DNA from: Candidatus Bathyarchaeota archaeon
Lineage (GTDB): Archaea; Thermoproteota; Bathyarchaeia; Bathyarchaeales; Bathycorpusculaceae
Assembly: GCA_963815095.1 (NCBI GenBank)
Contig: CAWFFH010000003.1
Span: forward strand, 32,001-96,000
Direction: 5' to 3'
DNA length: 64,000 nucleotides
Shown here: in pieces, positions 4,865 through 30,273 of the stretch
How positions within the stretch are numbered: position 1 is the first letter of the stretch
Layout: each line of letters starts with the position of its first letter
The notes under the pieces: model-generated
What the model was told of the DNA's origin: nothing
The model's database searches: none
The model's input: the letters and a program-made list of their open reading frames with translations, nothing else
Translations under genes and position numbers: made by a program

Positions 4865-5183
4865 GGCGGTGGATCTTAAGCGGTGGGTTAGGGGTCCATT
4901 GTACCGTAAATCCTCTACATGACGGGCTGACATCTGCGGATGAGGCGTCAAAGGCCGCTTGAACTTCCATTTCCGAACCAGTGACTATCCGTCCTTTGGG
5001 GCTGGCGGTCGATGGGTGGCTTCCGTAGGGAAGTTACTTCATCGTTCAGCAGGCGAACCTGGCTAGGCTCGGGAGAGAGCAACCTAAGTTTGGACGTTAT
5101 GCGCTCAAGGGGGTGCGGGTAAGAGTGTAGGGTTTGGAGGCTTCAGACGGATTCTGGGCGTCAAACCGCAGTGGTCCACCGCT
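4865..5183 (+). ncRNA. ffs: Archaeal signal recognition particle RNA (7S RNA)
   Basis: GC-rich, about 320 nt. Terminal helix GCGGTGGATC (4866-4875) pairs with GGTCCACCGC (5173-5182). Helix 6 CGATG-GGTGGCTTCC-GTAG-GGAAGTTACT-TCATCG has a GNAR loop. Helix 8 CTAGGCTC-GGGA-GAGAGCAACC carries the SRP54-binding AGG/AGC loop and a GNRA tetraloop. Confidence 0.93.
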
Positions 5184-14130: not shown

Positions 14131-14907
14131 ATGAAACAGTTTCTCATAACACCTCAAGTAGGAAAACGACTAATCGCTATAACAATAGCAAAGCACCCAG
14201 CCATAATTAAAGCAATAAAAAATGGAACCTTAGTAATCGTAGCTGGAACAACAAACGGATACGTTGCCGAAGAAATCCTAAAAACTCACAAAATAGCAAA
14301 TGACTTCTCAAGAAAGCATTTCTTCCGCGGTATAACCATGCCACCCACTAAAACAGTAACCGCAGAAGGAAGGTTAACGGACGAGAGCAAGTTTCCCGGA
14401 GATGTTATAATAACTAAAGGCATCTGGCAAAAAGGGAAAACAATTGCTGATGTCATTGACGACCTCAACGAAGGGGACGTCATCTTGAAGGGAGCAAACG
14501 CTCTGGATTTAACCCATAGACAAGCGGCTATTTTGATTGGACACCCTAAAGCTGGAACTATAGGTTTAGCATTGCCTGCTGTTGTAGGTCGCCGAGTAAG
14601 ACTCATAATTCCTGTTGGCTTAGAGAAACGTGTAAATGGCGATTTAAACGAACTTGCCGAAAAGCTTAATGCGCCAAGTGCAGGTGGGTACCGTTTGTTG
14701 CCTGTCAATGGTGAAGTGTTCACTGAATTGGATGCGTTGAGAGCTTTAACAGCGGCTAATGTAGAGCTGATCGCTGCGGGTGGCGTTTGTGGTGCAGAAG
14801 GCGCTTGTTGGATTTCTGTCACAGGGGAAGAAGAACAAGAGGAGTTTGCCGAGCAAATTATTGCGTCGGTGGCTGATGAACCACCGTTTAGCTCGGATTT
14901 TCTTTAA
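14131..14907 (+). CDS. Conserved hypothetical protein (possibly NagB/RpiA/CoA-transferase-like fold)
   Basis: [39 protein letters not shown]; GGAG Shine-Dalgarno; the fold call is tentative. Confidence 0.7.
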
Positions 14908-15320: not shown

Positions 15321-16289
15321 ATGAACAAAAAATATGGTCTCTATATCATTGCTGTGATAATAATTGTGTCTATTGTTTCAGCCGCTTTCATTTACAATGG
15401 CAGCCTTTCGAATTCAGGATCAAGCAATCAGAGTGCAATCTCTGTCATAGACGACGAAGGCTATACGACTAACTTAACTTCAGTTCCTCAAAGAATCATA
15501 TCCCTTGCTCCAAGTAACACCCAAATCGTTTTCGGCATCGGAGTAGGGAACAGAGTCGTCGGCGTAACTGACTACGACCATTACCCGTACAACTTTACTG
15601 CCTGGATAGCTGCAGGCAACATGACCAGCGTTGGAGGATTCTCGACACCTAACAAAGAAACCATCGCATCACTAAACCCAGACCTAATTCTTGCCACTCC
15701 CATAAACGACCCAGACGTTGTCACGTTGAGAAACTTGGGCTACAAAGTCTTAGTACTCAACCCTAACGATGTAAATGGCGTATTGGCAGACATCAACATG
15801 GTTGGCAAAGCAACAGACGCAACACAAAACGCTTCAACCTTAGTAAATTCATTAACAAGCCAAATCGACGCTATACAGGCAAAGATAGCCGCCGCTAACT
15901 TACCTAAACCAAAAGTGTACTATGAAGTATGGACTCCCCCAATAATGTCCGCTGGCGAAAACTCCTTCATCAATGACGTTATCTCAAAGGCTGGAGGAAT
16001 CAACATCTTCGAGAACGAAACCCAACAGTACCCAACCGTAAGCTCAGAAACAATAGTCCAAAAGAACCCAGACGTCATATTACTTCCAACTGACATGGCA
16101 AACCCAGGGGATACACCCTTCTACGGGAGCGTAAACGAAGTTAAAGCTAGACCAGGCTGGAGTTCGATTAACGCAGTACAGAACAACCGCATAATTGTTG
16201 TTAATGGTGACCTCTTTGCTGAAGCAGGACCAAGAATCGCCGACCAAATCCAAGCAGCAGTCCAAGCGTTTTACCCATCACTTTTTTAA
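15321..16289 (+). CDS. btuF: Cobalamin/corrinoid ABC transporter substrate-binding protein
   Basis: N-terminal TM anchor; PQRIISLAPSNT, VGVTDY, LNPDLILA, AGGINIF; next to cbiZ. Confidence 0.85.
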   Translation: MNKKYGLYIIAVIIIVSIVSAAFIYNGSLSNSGSSNQSAISVIDDEGYTTNLTSVPQRIISLAPSNTQIVFGIGVGNRVVGVTDYDHYPYNFTAWIAAGNMTSVGGFSTPNKETIASLNPDLILATPINDPDVVTLRNLGYKVLVLNPNDVNGVLADINMVGKATDATQNASTLVNSLTSQIDAIQAKIAAANLPKPKVYYEVWTPPIMSAGENSFINDVISKAGGINIFENETQQYPTVSSETIVQKNPDVILLPTDMANPGDTPFYGSVNEVKARPGWSSINAVQNNRIIVVNGDLFAEAGPRIADQIQAAVQAFYPSLF

Positions 16290-16319: not shown

Positions 16320-17402
16320 ATGATAACGGACAAGGTTAAAGAGAAATATTCCAATCGTTCTTCAAGATGGAAGCTAATTGTTTTACTGTTGATTGTGGCG
16401 CTTGTCGCCGCCGTGATTCTCTGCTTAAACATAGGTTTTGCACCTATCAGTTTCTCTGAAATACTTGCAATTTTAGGTAAGCAAATTCCGTTTCTAAATC
16501 ATTACATTGGATCTTCATCTGTTTCCTCCATAAACGAAGCAATCATAATTCAAATTCGTCTACCCCGTATACTTGCGGGGGCTTTAGTTGGAGCTGGCTT
16601 AGCAGCCGCGGGCGTCATGTACCAAGGCGTCTTCAGGAACCCAATGGCTGACTCCTACCTTCTTGGAGCTTCAGCAGGAGCATCTTTCGCCTATACTTTA
16701 GCAGTTATATATGCGGGTTCACTGGCACTCAACTTTTTCGGATTGGGATTTTTCCAAGTTGTTGCTTTCTTAGGCGCCGTCTTAACGGTCTTTTTGGTTT
16801 ACTTCATGTCACGTACTGGAAACAAGGTTCCAATAACGACCCTTTTGCTGTCAGGCATTGTTGTGAACATATTTATTCTGGCGCTTCAAACGGTCTTCGA
16901 GTTACGCTCGGGTAAAGCCCTAATCGGTATTGTCGCTTGGATAGCAGGCGGATTCTCAAACATCACCTGGATCAATGTTTATGTTGTTTTTCCATTTGTC
17001 TTAATAGGAATAGTAATTGCATATTTCTTTACTAAAGATCTCAACATGCTTTCCATGGGTGACGACACAGCTCAACATTTAGGCGTTAACACGGAGAGGG
17101 TGCGGCAGATTCTTCTGTTAATTAGCTCTTTGATTACAGGTGCCGTGGTATCAATCAGTGGTGTCATCGGGTTCGTCGGTCTTATCATTCCTCATATGAC
17201 GCGGTTAGTTATCGGACCTGACCATAGAATTCTTTTGCCCACATCGGCAATCGTTGGTGCTATATTCCTCATACTCTGTGATTCTCTTGCACGTGTTGCA
17301 ACAGGAGCATCAGAACTGCCAGTAGGGGTCATAACTGCTCTAGCTGGAACCCCATTCTTTATCTATCTGCTTAGGAAAAGAAAAACAAGTTACTCTCTAT
17401 AG
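16320..17402 (+). CDS. btuC: FecCD/BtuC-family ABC permease
   Basis: IRLPR, QGVFRNPMAD, A.HLGVN, GVIGFVGLIIPH, LPVG. Confidence 0.9.
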   Translation: MITDKVKEKYSNRSSRWKLIVLLLIVALVAAVILCLNIGFAPISFSEILAILGKQIPFLNHYIGSSSVSSINEAIIIQIRLPRILAGALVGAGLAAAGVMYQGVFRNPMADSYLLGASAGASFAYTLAVIYAGSLALNFFGLGFFQVVAFLGAVLTVFLVYFMSRTGNKVPITTLLLSGIVVNIFILALQTVFELRSGKALIGIVAWIAGGFSNITWINVYVVFPFVLIGIVIAYFFTKDLNMLSMGDDTAQHLGVNTERVRQILLLISSLITGAVVSISGVIGFVGLIIPHMTRLVIGPDHRILLPTSAIVGAIFLILCDSLARVATGASELPVGVITALAGTPFFIYLLRKRKTSYSL

Positions 17403-17410
17403 GATGGCTG

Positions 17411-18769
17411 ATGAACATGGTAGTACTTAGCGTGGACGGAGTCGAATGTCGCTACGGCTCAGTGAAAATATTGGAAGACGTTAACTTCACTGTCAAGGAA
17501 GGTGATTTCGTCGGGATTGTAGGACCTAACGGTTCAGGAAAAACTACCCTGCTAAAAAGCATCAGTCGAACCCTCAAACCCTACAAAGGAACCATCATCC
17601 TCGATAAATCCGACATTTACAGCCTAAAAAGCGTGGAATTAGCTAAACAAATGGCTATAGTTCCGCAAGAAAACAACATCGGGTTCAGCTTTACAGCACT
17701 AGACATCGTGTTAATGGGACGCAACCCCCATATGAAAAGATTCCAAATGGAATCAGAAAGCGACTTAACTATCGTCCGCAAAGCGATGAATCGAACCAAC
17801 ACTTGGCATCTAGCTGACCGCCCCATAAACGAGCTAAGCGGCGGAGAAAAACAACGCGTCGTCATCGCCCGCGCCCTAGCACAAGAACCCAAAGTCCTCT
17901 TGCTTGATGAACCACTAACACATCTGGACATGATTAATCAGCTTGAAATCATGGACCTTGTAAAAGAATTATGTATCAAGGAACGTTTGATTGTTTTAGA
18001 AGTTATCCACGACTTAAACCTTGCAGCACGTTATTGCAGTTCAATCCTGCTTATCAAAGAAGCAAAAATCTTTGCAGCTGGACCTGTCGAGAATGTTTTG
18101 ACGAGTGAAAACATAAAGGCTGTCTTTAACGTTGACGCAATTGTAAAGAAAAGTCTGATAACAAATTCGCTTTTCATCATTCCGCTCACCCCTCAGAAGC
18201 CATCTACTCCACGCAACTGCGCCATCCACCTTATTGCAGGGGCAGGAACAGGAACAGTTGTGATGAAAGCTTTGGTAGATGAAGGCTATGAAGTGACAGC
18301 GGGTGTCCTCAACATGCTTGACACAGATTACGAGACTGCGGAGCTTCTCAAGATTCCGACGGTCAGCGAGGCACCTTTTTCACCTATAACTGACCAGACA
18401 AAGCGATCACTCTTGGAAATGATAAAAAAATCTGCTATAATTGTGGTGACGTCAGTTCCGTTTGGTTATGGCAACCTCTCTAACTTGGAGACAGCACTTG
18501 ATGCGGTTAAACGAGGCATCAAAACATATGTGATCGATGAAGTGCCTATTGAAAGCCGAGACTTCACCGCTGGCAAGGCTACAGCCCTAATGGCGGAACT
18601 GAAGAAAGCAGGCGCCATTTTCATCAAACACCCCTCTGAATTACCCACGCTTGTTAATGCATCCCATGCAAAGATGGAGTTGCTCAAGCGTCAACCTGAG
18701 ATTCCAGGTCACATGAAAGATAAACCCAAACCAATCGCACAAACAATTGACGAAAAGGAGACCGCTTAA
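17411..18769 (+). CDS. btuD: Corrinoid/iron-chelate ABC ATPase with a C-terminal extension domain
   Basis: GPNGSGKT, LSGGEKQR, LLDEP, HDLNLAARY, plus an extra domain of about 190 aa (HLIAGAGTG, GVLNMLDTD). Confidence 0.88.
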   Translation: MNMVVLSVDGVECRYGSVKILEDVNFTVKEGDFVGIVGPNGSGKTTLLKSISRTLKPYKGTIILDKSDIYSLKSVELAKQMAIVPQENNIGFSFTALDIVLMGRNPHMKRFQMESESDLTIVRKAMNRTNTWHLADRPINELSGGEKQRVVIARALAQEPKVLLLDEPLTHLDMINQLEIMDLVKELCIKERLIVLEVIHDLNLAARYCSSILLIKEAKIFAAGPVENVLTSENIKAVFNVDAIVKKSLITNSLFIIPLTPQKPSTPRNCAIHLIAGAGTGTVVMKALVDEGYEVTAGVLNMLDTDYETAELLKIPTVSEAPFSPITDQTKRSLLEMIKKSAIIVVTSVPFGYGNLSNLETALDAVKRGIKTYVIDEVPIESRDFTAGKATALMAELKKAGAIFIKHPSELPTLVNASHAKMELLKRQPEIPGHMKDKPKPIAQTIDEKETA

Positions 18770-19870
18770 TTGGCATCAAAAGAAAATAATCAACCCTTTG
18801 GCGCGGAAAAACGCGGCAACAAACTTGATCATTTCATCTGGTCTTGCACAAGAGCATACCCAGTAAAACATGCTTTTTCACTTGGCGACGGAAAACCTCT
18901 GCCCAACGAATTGACGACGTCTGAAGCAAAAGCCATGCTGAAAAAAGTGTCTGTTTTTGGGGTTGATAATATCTTCATTTCTGGCGCTGGCTGGACTGGC
19001 GAACCGCTAATGCGCAAAGACTTCATAGAACTAATACAATACGTTGCCGAATTGAAGTTGTCGCCTTACGTAAAGGTCACAGGTTGGCATTTTACAGCTA
19101 AAGTTGCGAAAGAACTCGCTGAAGCAAACTGTAAGGCAATTATTTGTTTCGCAGGGCTTCGGGAAGTAGATGCTAAATTGCGTGGAGAAGGCGCCTTCGA
19201 AGACAGTGTTAATGCAGTCAAACTATGCAAACAATATGATATCCCATTTGCCATGAGCGTAATCAATTCAAAATACGTTGCCAACCAAGTTCCCGATTTA
19301 GTTAATCTTGCGATTGATTTGGGAGCGCGAAGCTTCCATTTGGCATCGTTGATTCCACAGCCAATCGACGTGGAAAACCAGTTCAAGATTCTAGGCGCAT
19401 TAGAGCCAACCCCCCAGCAGAGAGAAGACCAACTCAACGAAATTTACGAACTCAATAAAAAAGTCCAAGAGAAAATCCTAATTGTACCCTACGAAATGTT
19501 CAACAACCGTGTACTCAAAACCAAAGAGCCTTGGCGCGAACTTAGAAGTACATGTAGCATGTGTGACAACCTCAAAAAATATGAGTGGCTTGAAATTTTA
19601 GAAGATGGAAAAGCTTACGCTTGTGCCCCACTAAACTTGCAGTTTGGTGATATACGAACCGACAGTATTCAGCAAATCATGGATCGCATGCCAAAATCCA
19701 AAGAACTCATGAAACTAGCAGATCGCAACAACCTCAAAGGCAAGTGCGGTGTTTGCGAATTCAAAATGATTTGTGGTGGCTGCCGTGCAAGAGCTTACAT
19801 CTTTAGCAAGGACACCTTAAATCAAGACCCAGCATGCGTTTACCGACCAGCCGCTTTCGGCAAAAATTAA
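18770..19870 (+). CDS. Radical SAM/SPASM-fold protein (AhbC/AhbD/NirJ-like) lacking the CxxxCxxC motif
   Basis: ELTT.EA, GEPLMRKD, RGEGAFE and SPASM KCGVCEFKMICGGCRARAY...DPAC are present; the cluster site reads TRAYPVKHAFS. Confidence 0.85.
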   Translation: MASKENNQPFGAEKRGNKLDHFIWSCTRAYPVKHAFSLGDGKPLPNELTTSEAKAMLKKVSVFGVDNIFISGAGWTGEPLMRKDFIELIQYVAELKLSPYVKVTGWHFTAKVAKELAEANCKAIICFAGLREVDAKLRGEGAFEDSVNAVKLCKQYDIPFAMSVINSKYVANQVPDLVNLAIDLGARSFHLASLIPQPIDVENQFKILGALEPTPQQREDQLNEIYELNKKVQEKILIVPYEMFNNRVLKTKEPWRELRSTCSMCDNLKKYEWLEILEDGKAYACAPLNLQFGDIRTDSIQQIMDRMPKSKELMKLADRNNLKGKCGVCEFKMICGGCRARAYIFSKDTLNQDPACVYRPAAFGKN

Positions 19871-19883
19871 GAAGAGGACGAAA

Positions 19884-20516
19884 ATGGTAAAAGCTGACAA
19901 AACCGAATCATTTGATTTCCTAAAAAAGCAAGCCCTCGAATTAGGTGCTAAAGACGCAAAAATAATTCCTGTTAAAAAAATCGTAATCGAAGATCGAGTT
20001 GTTTTCAAATGTAAACTCGGCTGCGAAAAATACGGAAAAACCCTAGCATGCCCTCCATACGCTCCTACACCTGAGGAATTCCGAAAAATAGTCAACGACT
20101 ACCATTACGCCATGTTCATGAAGTTTAAAACGCAAGTTGAGGGAGATTCGGAACTAATAAAGTATCTTTCTAAAGGTGATGACCCCTCTGTTCCTGCGGA
20201 GATGAAATTAAAAGTTGAAGAGTTCTGGTCTGGTTGGAAAATTGAGATGAAAAAAATCTTAGATGTTGTACATGACCTCGAAAAGGCGGCCGCTAAAGAA
20301 GGATATCTGCTTGCTATTGGGTTGGTCTCGGGAGCATGTAACTTGTGTGAAGAATGCAACATAGAAAAAGGCGTCTGCATCCACCCTACAATGAAACGTT
20401 ACTCAGAAGAAGGCGTCGGAGTCAACGTTAAAGCAACCGCGGGAAAAGCAGGCATCAAATTTACTTTGCCATTTAATAAGAATCCTGAAACTTTCGCTTT
20501 GCTCTTAATAGATTAG
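19884..20516 (+). CDS. DUF2284-family predicted metal-binding protein
   Basis: CKLGC..YG...CPP and GAC.LC.EC......C.HP...R.S.EG.G.NV. Confidence 0.85.
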   Translation: MVKADKTESFDFLKKQALELGAKDAKIIPVKKIVIEDRVVFKCKLGCEKYGKTLACPPYAPTPEEFRKIVNDYHYAMFMKFKTQVEGDSELIKYLSKGDDPSVPAEMKLKVEEFWSGWKIEMKKILDVVHDLEKAAAKEGYLLAIGLVSGACNLCEECNIEKGVCIHPTMKRYSEEGVGVNVKATAGKAGIKFTLPFNKNPETFALLLID

Positions 20517-20583: not shown

Positions 20584-21690
20584 ATGACATTGAATACGAG
20601 AATCGAGAATATTGACGCTGAAGTCAAAGACCAAACCCTTGTCATTAGGTCAAAAAATCCACTTAGAATTCTCAGCTCTGCCCTTTTGAATGGTGGTTTG
20701 GTTGAGGCAAATGGAATAATTAATGTTCAGGTTCCTGTAGGCAGTGGGAGCGATATGAACGATATGCACTGGAGCGGTCCCGAAGTTTTCTTGAAAAAGA
20801 AAGTGCAATCACTTCAACTTCCGATCGACAAAGTACTCGGATTGATGACTGCGGCAAATATGAAGAATTTGCAGGTCCTAAATGAGAAATGTGGAGAAGC
20901 AACTCTGACAGTTTTTGTTACCGCTGGGGCAACAGTAGCGGTTACGGCAGGTGAACCGGCAGCTTCAAAGAGTACTTTACTTGAACGAATCGGCACAATC
21001 AATATCATAATACTTGTTGATGGAAACCTAACTGACGGCTGCATGGTTGAAGTTATCAAAACAGCCACCGAAGCAAAAACGGTTGCAATACGAGAGTTAG
21101 ATATTAGAAGTCGTTTTTCAGGCGACTTAGCCACTGGGACATTGACGGATAGTGTTGTAGTGGGTTGCACCAAAAAAGGGGAAACAATACGGTACGCTGG
21201 GACATTTACAATTCTTGGGGAATTAATTGGCAAATGTGTGCGTGAGGGAGTGAAGACCGCCATTTGCAAGCAAGAAAATATTGCGCCAGACAGATCACTT
21301 GTTGAAAGGTTAGCAGATAGATGTCTATCACTCGAAACTATCGTTTCGCAGATTTCTGAGGGAAAAATAACAAAAAAGACACCTCAGTATCTGCAAATTC
21401 GAAAACGACTGGAATCGACTCTGTTTGACCCAAAAATTGCAACGCTTGTTATAGCAGCTCTTAGACTCGATGAAGACTTAGCAAAAGGCTTAATCCCCAA
21501 AAAAACTCCAAACACAGTTGATCAGGCTTTGTTTGAGGAAATTGTTAAATCTGCTTCAAAATATTCCTTGAATGATTTTCCAGAATTTTACTTCAATAAA
21601 GAAAAGCCCGAAGAAGAAGCCCAGCTAGGTCCTTTTACAAAAAGTGTTTTAAAAGCTATTTTCCAAGAGGCTCAATCAAACATCCCCTGA
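20584..21690 (+). CDS. cbiZ: Adenosylcobinamide amidohydrolase with a degenerate C-terminal CobZ/PgpA-like domain
   Basis: LSSA..NGG, GLMTAA, GTINII, TATEAK, ATGTLTDS. Confidence 0.88.
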   Translation: MTLNTRIENIDAEVKDQTLVIRSKNPLRILSSALLNGGLVEANGIINVQVPVGSGSDMNDMHWSGPEVFLKKKVQSLQLPIDKVLGLMTAANMKNLQVLNEKCGEATLTVFVTAGATVAVTAGEPAASKSTLLERIGTINIIILVDGNLTDGCMVEVIKTATEAKTVAIRELDIRSRFSGDLATGTLTDSVVVGCTKKGETIRYAGTFTILGELIGKCVREGVKTAICKQENIAPDRSLVERLADRCLSLETIVSQISEGKITKKTPQYLQIRKRLESTLFDPKIATLVIAALRLDEDLAKGLIPKKTPNTVDQALFEEIVKSASKYSLNDFPEFYFNKEKPEEEAQLGPFTKSVLKAIFQEAQSNIP

Positions 21691-21726: not shown

Positions 21727-21753
21727 GTATTACTATTTCAATAAATAGTGTGC
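21727..21753 (+). promoter_or_regulatory. Putative metal-regulator (NikR-like) operator
   Basis: GTATTACTATTT-CAAT-AAATAGTGTGC inverted repeat at the start of the Ni/Co transporter gene. Confidence 0.45.
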
Positions 21754-22458
21754 ATGACTATGGATCTGTCAATAATCTTTATCCTTTTTACAAGATTAGG
21801 GTTAGGCTTAGCGCATTCCCTTGACCCTGACCATGTTGTCGCAGTATCCACCTTATTATGCAATAACAAAAGCCTACGAAAATCCATCTCTTCAGCAACT
21901 GTCTGGGGCGTTGGGCATTCAGCGGTGCTTTTTGTAATCGGATTACTTTTCCTCACCCTAAGCGTTGTAATTCCTCAATCTATGCTCAATCTATTCGATT
22001 GCGCCGCTGGATTTTTGCTAATAACTTTGGGAGCATTTGTGCTTAGACCATTAATTGCTGAAAAAATCAACGACAACCAAATTATCAATGATCACACCCA
22101 TTCGCACCCGCACTCGCATCCTCATTCACATTCACACGATCACGCCATCGAAAACCATCAAGAACATGCTTATCTGCATAAGTCAGCGATTACAGGTGCT
22201 CTGCAGGGTCTGGGAGGCAGCGCTGCCTTAATGTTGGTAACGGTGTCAACTGTGAATTCAGTTGAGGTAGGTGCAGTCTTCATTTTCATCTTCGGAGTTG
22301 GCGTCATCTTGGGTATGGTTGGTATTGCTTGCTTAGTCGGGTCTGTTTTGGCTTATACTGCAGCGAATTTGGAGAAAGGGCATAAAGTCATTAAAGTTCT
22401 AACTGGTTCAGCCAGTATCGTTTTTGGTATCGTCATTATTGTTTATGCTGTGGTTTAG
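21754..22458 (+). CDS. High-affinity Ni/Co transporter (NiCoT/UreH type)
   Basis: HSLDPDHVVAV, WGVGHS, His-rich loop HTHSHPHSHPHSHSHDH, GLGGSAA. Confidence 0.88.
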   Translation: MTMDLSIIFILFTRLGLGLAHSLDPDHVVAVSTLLCNNKSLRKSISSATVWGVGHSAVLFVIGLLFLTLSVVIPQSMLNLFDCAAGFLLITLGAFVLRPLIAEKINDNQIINDHTHSHPHSHPHSHSHDHAIENHQEHAYLHKSAITGALQGLGGSAALMLVTVSTVNSVEVGAVFIFIFGVGVILGMVGIACLVGSVLAYTAANLEKGHKVIKVLTGSASIVFGIVIIVYAVV

Positions 22459-22505: not shown

Positions 22506-23198
22506 CTACGATCTTCTGGTTTCGCAGTTGTTTGGTAGTTTTTTCTGTGTGAAGAGTTCTAAACCCCAAAGTTTTACGCCTCCTAACCGCGATAACGAAA
22601 CAATCAGCGAAGACGCAATAACACCCTCAATTATTCCTGTTGGAACATACCAAAAAAGCATAGAGGGAACAGTCACAAATAATCCTCCAAGAGTGCCAAC
22701 CATTGGAAAAAGACCAATTTCTATTCCTACAGCCAACGCTGTACATACATTAGAGATGAAGGAAGCAACAAACATTCCAATCGCTAACCTTTTTGTCGTA
22801 AACCCTCTTGAAAGGAACGCTTTTACGATGAAGAATGACAATGCGCCGATTACTGCCATGTTGAAGAGGTTTACGCCAAAAGTTGTTATTCCGCCATCAC
22901 CTAACGCTAAAGCCTGAATAACTAAGGTTATAGTCATACTGATTACACAAGCGAATGGTCCAAGAATCATGGAGATTGCAGTTCCGCCTAAGAAATGCCA
23001 CGTACTGCCTCCGCCCGCGACAGGAAATTCGACTAACTGAATAACGAGTAGGAGTGAACTAACAACGCCAATTAGCGGGATAATATGGCGTGGGTGATTC
23101 TTTTTTATTCCATGCCACGCCCACGCTAGAAAACTGAAAGCTACGAGGTACATGGTTATACACGCATATGGATTGAGAATTCCATCGGGGATGTGCAT
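22506..23198 (-). CDS. cbiM: ECF transporter S component, CbiM/NikM family
   Basis: Diagnostic N-terminus MHIPDG; H.LGG; QAL..GDGG.T..G.N..NM. Confidence 0.9.
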   Translation of the reverse strand: MHIPDGILNPYACITMYLVAFSFLAWAWHGIKKNHPRHIIPLIGVVSSLLLVIQLVEFPVAGGGSTWHFLGGTAISMILGPFACVISMTITLVIQALALGDGGITTFGVNLFNMAVIGALSFFIVKAFLSRGFTTKRLAIGMFVASFISNVCTALAVGIEIGLFPMVGTLGGLFVTVPSMLFWYVPTGIIEGVIASSLIVSLSRLGGVKLWGLELFTQKKLPNNCETRRS

Positions 23199-30195: not shown

Positions 30196-30273
30196 GGGTC
30201 CGTAGCTCAGTCAGGCTAGAGCATCGGACTCTTAATCCGAGGGTCGCGGGTTCAATTCCCGTCGGACCCGCCA
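30196..30273 (+). tRNA. tRNA-Lys(CTT), intronless, CCA encoded
   Basis: Acceptor stem GGGTCCG/CGGACCC; anticodon arm TCGGA-CTCTTAA-TCCGA; T arm GCGGG-TTCAATT-CCCGT. Confidence 0.96.

Follow-up and report, generated by a model that had tools for sequence, protein, structure and literature searches.

Cobamide salvage has a central place in anaerobic communities, and members of the Bathyarchaeia depend heavily on B12 enzymes. How archaea process corrinoids after uptake and ahead of CbiZ or nucleotide-loop assembly (i.e., reduction, ligand removal and hand-off) is poorly known. CblC/MMACHC, BtuM, PduS and CobR accept incoming corrinoids and reduce them or remove the upper ligand, and HemW is a heme chaperone with a radical S-adenosylmethionine (radical-SAM) fold, is a member of the HemN branch and has retained the CxxxCxxC cluster. 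Among curated families, the best matches of the protein reported here are AhbD (the heme b synthase; TIGR04545), NirJ, NirJ2 and AhbC, all of them tetrapyrrole enzymes, which have the same length and domain order and share its SPASM cysteines and GEP motif. We analyzed a 64,000-nucleotide stretch of DNA from a Candidatus Bathyarchaeota archaeon (hereafter the window; GenBank assembly GCA_963815095.1, contig CAWFFH010000003.1, positions 32,001 to 96,000), in which a gene at 18770-19870, in an operon with genes for a putative BtuFCD-type corrinoid importer, encodes a protein of 366 amino acids for which we use the working name pRS. Sequence comparisons indicate that pRS descends from an AhbD/NirJ-type tetrapyrrole radical-SAM/SPASM enzyme and that it has lost the ligands of the SAM cluster, as well as residues invariant in AhbD, and has kept the SPASM cysteines. 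Its placement in btuFCD and cobamide-salvage operons is conserved across distant lineages.

Sequence and ancestry of the pRS family

The gene and its diagnostic regions are located as follows:

18770-19870, forward strand: pRS, an AhbD/NirJ-like radical-SAM/SPASM fold protein without CxxxCxxC (366 amino acids, TTG start)
18839-18880, forward strand: degenerate cluster loop of pRS, WSCTRAYPVKHAFS (residues 24-37; former Cys positions Y30, H34 and S37)
18980-19006, forward strand: GGE region of pRS, SGAGWTGEP (residues 71-79, with a 4-residue insertion)
19553-19837, forward strand: SPASM region of pRS, with eight conserved Cys (C262, C265, C285, C326, C329, C335, C338 and C356)

The translation contains LDHFIWSCTRAYPVKHAFSLGDGKP, FISGAGWTGEPLMRK and the eight SPASM cysteines, and has HFIWSCTRAYPVKHAFSLGDGKP at the position of the radical-SAM CxxxCxxC loop. 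An earlier note, made from the letters of this stretch, had claimed that all three cluster cysteines are replaced, that the GGEP motif is interrupted and that the SPASM cysteines are intact, and our translation and alignments bear out each of these statements. Y30, H34 and S37 align with the three cluster-Cys columns, which are 100% Cys in the canonical relatives. At the GGE position, FISGAGWTGEPLMRK carries an insertion of four residues (AGWT) between G72 and G77; this insertion is typical of the close clade (W75 is found in 87/126 sequences of the family alignment, and 27 are gapped there, reading G----GEP), and G77, E78 and P79 are conserved both in the pRS family and in canonical relatives. 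Each of the eight SPASM cysteines is kept in 113-119 of the 126 sequences, the remainder being mostly gaps; C262, C265 and C285 are in addition substituted in 1 to 6 sequences.

Overall, pRS has the fold of a radical-SAM protein and lacks the hallmarks of a radical-SAM enzyme, i.e., CxxxCxxC and the SAM-binding motifs (an uninterrupted GGE, and the SxDG Asp after beta-4). The Pfam Radical_SAM model (PF04055) matched pRS with 31.8 bits (cut-off 29.5) in an alignment that begins at model position 21, past the Cys motif, and the Pfam SPASM model (PF13186) matched with 23.6 bits (cut-off 21.5), consistent with the SPASM pattern of 7-8 Cys for two auxiliary [4Fe-4S] clusters. The earlier note had proposed modelling the fold; an AlphaFold2 model built from a 21-sequence alignment (mean predicted local distance difference test score, 85.9; predicted template-modelling score, 0.87) shows a beta/alpha barrel of six units followed by a SPASM-like C-terminal part, and the best PDB matches of this model in Foldseek are SPASM radical-SAM structures, i.e., PqqE (E = 1.8e-16), SkfB, SuiB, CteB and anSME. 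A profile search of PDB sequences with pRS agreed with the Foldseek matches.

The pRS family is sharply bounded. A search of 5.8 billion proteins gave 488 matches at E <= 0.001, the best 120 of which are 50-94% identical to pRS; in a scan of 1.84 billion representatives, full-length pRS proteins scored 447, 366, 256 and 248 bits, followed by ordinary radical-SAM/SPASM proteins with at most 136 bits. The family alignment comprised 126 sequences (the query, the 120 listed matches and 5 representatives), 114 of which cover the site of the cluster motif. CxxxCxxC was absent from 113 of these 114, down to approximately 35% identity, and the only sequence with C-x3-C-x2-C, i.e., P0125 (41% identical), belongs to a sister clade. 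Loss of the motif is thus not due to chance or sequencing error, and it is conserved among homologs, a point that the earlier note had proposed to check; close orthologs with CxxxCxxC, which that note had named as evidence against its interpretation, were not found inside the family, the motif being retained in a sister clade approximately 40% identical. The former Cys columns are occupied by Y/E/F/R, H/Y/Q and S, respectively, with a single vestigial Cys in a few members.

Changes beyond the cluster loop emerged from a Henikoff-weighted profile comparison of 108 family members against 79 AhbD-like canonical proteins. Residues that are 100% conserved in the AhbD-like set and replaced in the pRS family were C30, C34, C37, D128, D135, P243, Y245 and W304, and S126, G198, N170, N104 and N163 (86-95% conserved in the AhbD-like set) were also replaced. 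D128, which we take to be the Asp of the ribose-binding SxDG motif, is present in all 79 AhbD-like sequences and is replaced by Ala in 87% (weighted) of the pRS family. The eight SPASM cysteines, G77-E78-P79, R82, D84 and R138 are common to both sets. The pRS family in turn has its own near-invariant residues, i.e., C26, Y100, K102, D134, C153, N166, Q197, P198, Q204 and E212, as well as Y241, F244, N246, E253, W273, E275 and others. In the pRS family, the catalytic pocket is thus rebuilt and not simply damaged.

The best curated NCBIfam models for pRS were all tetrapyrrole radical-SAM enzymes (AhbD, TIGR04053, NirJ2, NirJ and AhbC); matches to AhbD and NirJ/NirJ2/AhbC scored 141.6, 131.3, 92.7 and 83.5 bits, far below the respective cut-offs of 500-650 (500 for AhbD). 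No curated model or paper describing the pRS family was found in NCBIfam or in the literature searched, which holds few subscription journals. Public records label pRS homologues as "radical SAM protein with 4Fe4S-binding SPASM domain" or "AdoMet-dependent heme synthase", and both labels are very probably wrong on the evidence presented here.

A quick IQ-TREE phylogeny of 62 rows (23 family proteins selected to span the family, 9 translations from loci, the complete set of 9 sister-clade proteins and 21 of the 79 canonical proteins) placed the pRS family in one clade of 32 rows (Shimodaira-Hasegawa-like approximate likelihood-ratio test [SH-aLRT] support, 99). The motif-retaining clade, labelled Candidatus Tectomicrobia (P0125 and P0392-P0399; 39-44% identical to the pRS family), was recovered as its sister (SH-aLRT 97), and the two together were set apart from AhbD-like proteins (SH-aLRT 99). 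Proteins of the sister clade share C26, Y100, K102, W106, Q197, Y241, F244, W273 and E275 with the pRS family; they differ from it in keeping CNFxCxHC (9/9 sequences) and in the absence of C265. The simplest history suggested by these sequences would be a single loss of the cluster, after new pocket residues had begun to appear. The pRS family represents a clean case of conversion of a radical enzyme into a non-radical protein, with an intermediate sister clade that still has the cluster motif.

pRS is under strong purifying selection. Comparison with its orthologue at locus L009 (loci and genomes are cited by our working numbers, L and G, respectively), which is 96% identical, gave a ratio of non-synonymous to synonymous substitution rates (dN/dS) of 0.058, with 48 synonymous and 12 non-synonymous differences. 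The corresponding dN/dS values against L009 were 0.033 for btuC, 0.040 for btuD, 0.120 for btuF and 0.136 for the DUF2284 gene downstream of pRS. For more distant orthologues, where dS is saturated, dN was 0.07-0.14 for pRS, 0.07-0.22 for btuD and 0.14-0.31 for cbiZ.

Gene context and genome background

Among 27 other pRS loci (after removal of duplicates between collections, i.e., L013 = L170, L014 = L175 and L017 = L177), btuF, btuC or btuD was found in the same gene string as pRS in 22, and these loci span archaea and one or more bacterial-type contigs. The remaining five have no btu gene in the string; of these, L089, L092, L101 and L176 are cut by a contig end just upstream of pRS, and L017 has a divergent DUF71 gene. 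Loci of the close clade (at least 70% identity) show the order btuF-btuC-btuD-pRS, followed by DUF2284 in 14 loci; exceptions are a DUF71-B12 gene after pRS in G346 and unrelated opposite-strand genes in L092. In the distant clade (approximately 47-56% identity; 11 loci), pRS is usually located between btuF and btuC (L093, L094 and L095), with other placements beside btuF (L015, L016, L096 and L178), before btuC-btuD (L018) or before cbiZ-btuF (L128). For example, L015 reads BtuF-pRS-rSAM-CbiZ-rSAM-BtuC-BtuD-CobD-CobQ (rSAM, radical SAM), and L094, which is a Gram-negative bacterial arrangement, reads CobU-CobT-CobS...CobD-like-AsnB-like-DUF71-BtuF-pRS-BtuC-BtuD-CobA-TonB-dependent receptor. 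In two loci, L014 (= L175) and L010, several operon genes (btuF, btuC, btuD, pRS, DUF2284 and cbiZ) appear as split, overlapping tblastn pieces; this pattern resembles assembly errors of the frameshift type more than the decay of a single gene.

CbiZ was found in 14 of the 27 loci, and other recurrent neighbours of pRS are CobU/T/S, CobA, CobD, CobQ, CbiA-like and DUF71-B12 proteins, the last of these adjoining pRS in L017, L093, L094 and L227. Passages on the DUF71-B12 subgroup in PMC3541065 report clustering with btuFCD in 75/102 cases and predict a role in B12 salvage. BtuFCD has also been described next to CbiZ in Bathy-6 genomes, in passages that make no mention of a pRS gene (PMC11697101).

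The operon of the window and its flanking genes comprise:

14131-14907, forward strand: upstream neighbour of 258 amino acids, without a Pfam or NCBIfam family
15321-16289, forward strand: BtuF-like substrate-binding protein (PF01497 Peripla_BP_2, 123.3 bits; NCBIfam BtuF, 97.9 bits, cut-off 234)
16320-17402, forward strand: BtuC-like permease (PF01032 FecCD, 301.2 bits; best NCBIfam match BtuC, NF007081, 296.5 bits, cut-off 461)
17411-18769, forward strand: BtuD-like ATPase of 452 amino acids with a long C-terminal extension (PF00005 ABC_tran; NF007082, 343.4 bits, cut-off 537)
19884-20516, forward strand: Cys-rich DUF2284 protein of 210 amino acids (PF10050, 145.7 bits, cut-off 25)
20584-21690, forward strand: CbiZ (adenosylcobinamide amidohydrolase) of 368 amino acids with a CobZ-like C-terminal tail, CbiS-like (PF01955, 187.8 bits, cut-off 27)
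21748-22458, forward strand: membrane protein, encoded directly after cbiZ, in which a loop (HTHSHPHSHPHSHSHDH) is rich in His (weak NF007454 match, E = 2e-6)
22506-23198, reverse strand: lone cbiM, on the strand opposite to the membrane-protein gene

The TAA stop of btuD occupies 18767-18769 and the TTG start of pRS follows directly at 18770, with AAGGAG located 10-15 nucleotides upstream; no alternative start codon is present ahead of the first beta-strand of pRS. The two genes lie in one reading frame with a single TAA between them (18767-18772), an arrangement not common to all relatives (e.g., L012), and no BtuD-pRS fusion was found among the family matches. The start of pRS right at the btuD stop, as well as the succession of a Cys-rich DUF2284 gene (145.7 bits) and cbiZ (187.8 bits) downstream, had been described correctly in the earlier note. 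The synteny that it had proposed to check is conserved for the link with btuFCD (22/27 loci) and not for DUF2284, which follows pRS in 14/27 loci, all within the clade with at least 70% identity, and in 0/11 loci of the distant clade.

The corrinoid module "together with DUF2284" that the note had proposed is thus not general, and the interpretation given in the note is supported in part, by the conserved loss of the cluster ligands, by purifying selection and by the link with btuFCD. In G187, a genome of the same genus that lacks pRS, the operon (L191; G187:C2:33000-49000) carries CbiZ, a ChuW/HutW/HemW-like radical-SAM protein (194.6 bits, cut-off 400), BtuF, BtuC, BtuD and DUF2284, as well as a cobyrinic acid a,c-diamide synthase of the CbiA-like type (507 bits against a cut-off of 354); as DUF2284 follows btuFCD there in the absence of pRS, DUF2284 joins btuFCD independently. 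The DUF2284 family is present in 51/151 genomes of the phylum, and in 0/30 other loci of the phylum was btuF, btuC or btuD found within 1.5 kb of it. We therefore rejected DUF2284 as a general corrinoid partner, given these loci and a second copy in the same genome as the window (57% identical), which lies among unrelated genes. The DUF2284 protein of the window has seven invariant Cys in an alignment of 25 sequences (C43, C47, C56, C152, C155, C158 and C165), and no PDB relatives were found by sequence or profile search. Overall, btuFCD is surrounded by a variable accessory set rather than a fixed pRS-DUF2284-CbiZ module; members of this set are CbiZ, pRS, DUF2284, DUF71-B12, a CbiA-like amidotransferase, ChuW/HemW-like radical-SAM proteins and small radical-SAM proteins. 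In G326, a second btuFCD-like transporter (L195; G326:C13:147000-163000) lies beside a NifH-NifD-like fusion (351.5 bits with CfbC, for which the cut-off is 402) and another gene, which is nitrogenase-component-1-like, and may serve transport or processing of another tetrapyrrole.

The upstream neighbour at 14131-14907 is kept ahead of btuF in close relatives (L009-L012, L014 and L228). The membrane protein downstream of cbiZ is likewise conserved in close relatives (by synteny) and its weak match, NF007454, is Ni/Co efflux-like; it may, on this basis, be a candidate Ni/Co (cobalt) transporter. For CbiZ, the equivalog of the bifunctional CbiS (NF038002) scored 153.9 bits, below its cut-off of 250, and TIGR03161 matched weakly. 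Other features of the window are an archaeal signal recognition particle RNA at 4867-5181 (forward strand, 157.4 bits), a tRNA-Lys(CTT) at 30196-30273 (forward strand) and a weak CRISPR-DR17 match inside btuD at 17736-17760 (reverse strand, 28.6 bits, gathering score 42, E = 0.054), which we took as chance. The signal recognition particle RNA, together with the names under which close homologues are listed publicly, assigns the window to a genome of the Bathyarchaeia.

The genome from which the window derives (98.45% complete) looks like that of a salvager with nucleotide-loop assembly. The window copies are the only btuF and btuC that were found in it by tblastn with the window proteins, and it encodes two CbiZ, CbiB, a CbiA-like protein and, beside cbiM on another contig, a ChuW-like radical-SAM protein. 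A second cobamide locus outside the window (L182) consists of a string of DUF71, CobT-like, CobS and CobY-like genes at G000:C3:392557-395722; an AP_endonuc_2 (xylose-isomerase-like TIM barrel; TIM, triosephosphate isomerase) gene and cbiQ/O lie nearby, and its DUF71 protein is Dph6-like and belongs to the B12 subgroup by context. CbiC was not found in the genome, and the CobQ of L015 had no tblastn match in it, so that we detected no cobyric acid synthase of the CobQ/CbiP type. Matches to CbiB of identical score and length occur at G000:C3:12987-13832 and G000:C9:39563-40408, which suggests that, in the assembly, contig C9 is a second copy of the beginning of C3.

Neither a CobA-type nor a PF01923 adenosyltransferase had a match in this genome; across it and 60 others of the genus, CobA-type enzymes (PF02572) were found in 2/61 and PF01923, which covers PduO and EutT, in 0/61. 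Matches to the known ATP:corrinoid adenosyltransferase families were thus nearly absent from the genus in spite of the presence of CbiZ, for which the known substrate in archaea is adenosylcobinamide. We considered whether pRS replaces the missing ATP:corrinoid adenosyltransferase as a SAM-using enzyme, and rejected this since the lack is genus-wide, independent of the presence of pRS, and L094 has cobA in its pRS operon.

Possible roles of pRS

We assign a probability of roughly 0.45 to the reading that pRS is a cytoplasmic, SAM-independent iron-sulfur (Fe-S) protein that binds, and possibly reduces or escorts, incoming corrinoids, as its ancestry and gene context suggest. In this scheme, the partial TIM barrel, which once would have held SAM and a tetrapyrrole, would take the corrinoid released into the cytoplasm by BtuCD, the candidate cargoes being a complete cobamide and its precursors cobinamide and cobyric acid. 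Two [4Fe-4S] clusters, presumably still bound by the SPASM cysteines, could pass electrons to cobalt, so that Co(III)/Co(II) would be reduced and the upper ligand freed, and pRS might then deliver its cargo to CbiZ, the amidating enzymes and the assembly of the nucleotide loop. The Cys-rich DUF2284 protein downstream would be, in this genus, a plausible partner for electrons or metal. An Fe-S protein encoded between btuF and btuC in distant lineages would represent a concrete candidate for such a post-uptake step.

Several observations weigh against this reading. We infer cluster occupancy, corrinoid binding, electron transfer and hand-off by pRS; the case for corrinoid binding and redox activity draws on ancestry and gene neighbourhood, and occupancy of the SPASM clusters is assumed from the conserved cysteines. 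pRS is also dispensable for btuFCD, as it was found in only 11/401 sampled Bathyarchaeia genomes and in 7/40 of the same genus, and btuFCD occurs without either pRS or DUF2284 in same-genus genomes G157, G193 and G326 (four loci). BtuF, BtuC and BtuD of the window all score below their NCBIfam equivalog cut-offs, and the corrinoid specificity of the transporter is therefore deduced from best matches and from the adjacency of cbiZ. Searches of the window and of 10 related loci revealed no cobalamin riboswitch. Finally, a small true radical-SAM gene lies immediately after pRS in 3 of the 10 distant-clade loci with downstream sequence.

It is conceivable, though rather doubtful, that the pRS family acts as a SAM-independent corrinoid reductase or upper-ligand remover built on a radical-SAM/SPASM scaffold in anaerobic archaea and some bacteria. 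If so, it would render environmental Co(III) corrinoids usable once BtuCD has imported them, in functional parallel to CblC/BtuM, and would be a first example of a radical-SAM tetrapyrrole enzyme turned into a redox protein of cobamide salvage.

The small radical-SAM genes are no less compatible with pRS being a scaffold than with its being a reductase. Under this alternative, pRS would have no catalytic activity of its own; as a substrate-binding or scaffold subunit, it would offer the corrinoid to another protein, a true radical-SAM enzyme, and the radical chemistry would be performed in trans. The genes in question encode proteins of 237-295 amino acids and directly follow pRS in L015, L096 and L101, two copies flanking cbiZ in L015 (L015:2527-3414, L015:4246-5010, L096:8043-8753 and L101:370-1131); the proteins are approximately 35% identical to each other, their best NCBIfam matches resemble NrdG and glycyl-radical activases, and CxxxCxxC was read in three of them (both of L015 and the one of L101). 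A ChuW/HutW/HemW-like radical-SAM gene in or beside the btuFCD operons of same-genus genomes G187 and G038 points in the same direction. On the other hand, no adjacent radical-SAM gene is present in the window or in the whole close clade, where the slot is taken by DUF2284 or DUF71-B12, and the genome of the window has only weak matches (24-29% identity) to the small radical-SAM proteins, its ChuW-like gene lying on another contig by cbiM. We consider a scaffold role improbable on balance.

Equally improbable in our judgement is that pRS acts on a tetrapyrrole other than corrinoids, be it heme, an F430-type compound or a derivative of siroheme, or that it serves the ABC (ATP-binding cassette) importer as a gate or redox sensor. 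The ancestors of pRS act on Fe-tetrapyrroles, Btu-type transporters also carry heme, and the BtuF of the window scores 89 bits with IsdE versus 98 bits with BtuF; in addition, pRS occurs with CobN and ChlI/D-like chelatase genes in L096, and a same-genus btuFCD adjoins CfbC/NifH-like genes. Against this, corrinoid-specific genes recur as neighbours (e.g., CbiZ in 14/27 loci), and the best NCBIfam matches of BtuC and BtuD are corrinoid transporters, i.e., the vitamin B12 permease BtuC and, for NF007082, a corrinoid ABC transporter ATPase.

That pRS is still a radical-SAM enzyme, with a SAM-cleaving cluster held by alternative ligands such as C26, C153 and H34, is very unlikely. C26 (87%, weighted) and C153 (96%) are indeed family-specific conserved cysteines, G77, E78, P79 and R138 are kept and the Pfam Radical_SAM match lies just above its cut-off; however, only these two extra Cys are conserved, H34 is found at 48% (weighted), C26 is replaced by S, F, G or V in 7/114 sequences, and the AhbD-invariant D128, D135, P243, Y245 and W304 are all replaced. 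A decaying, functionless remnant, for which the loss of all catalytic hallmarks and the patchy distribution (11/401 genomes) might speak, is already contradicted by the dN/dS of 0.058, by more than 100 sequence clusters with intact frames and dozens of family-specific invariant residues, and by the operon position conserved across archaea and bacteria, and has next to no probability.

Comparison with known systems

Compared to AhbD-like proteins, pRS has replacements at all three cluster Cys and at 10 or more further positions of 86-100% conservation, and it is located in btuFCD and cobamide-salvage operons, not in heme or heme d1 clusters. The closest solved folds, i.e., PqqE (6c8v), SkfB (6efn), SuiB (5v1q) and anSME (4k37) (Foldseek E values of 1e-16 to 1e-12, template-modelling scores of 0.6-0.7), are 14-21% identical to pRS; all of these enzymes mature peptides or proteins, and their SAM cluster is intact. 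CblC/MMACHC, BtuM, PduS and CobR are related to pRS by functional analogy only, their sequences and folds being unrelated. HemW shows that the fold of a tetrapyrrole radical-SAM enzyme can come to serve in escorting a tetrapyrrole, and HemW/ChuW-like genes occupy btuFCD operons of same-genus genomes; pRS differs from HemW in belonging to the SPASM branch and in having lost the cluster. Halobacterial proteins of TIGR04347, named "pseudo-SAM/SPASM protein" in NCBIfam and not mentioned in the literature searched, combine SPASM with a radical-SAM-like N-terminal half and thus embody the same concept as pRS; as pRS matches this model with 95.2 bits in two partial stretches (cut-off 525), below its match to AhbD, it is not a member. 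Overall, a pseudo radical-SAM/SPASM protein is already a named concept through TIGR04347, and what is new here is a cross-domain family of such proteins tied to corrinoid import.

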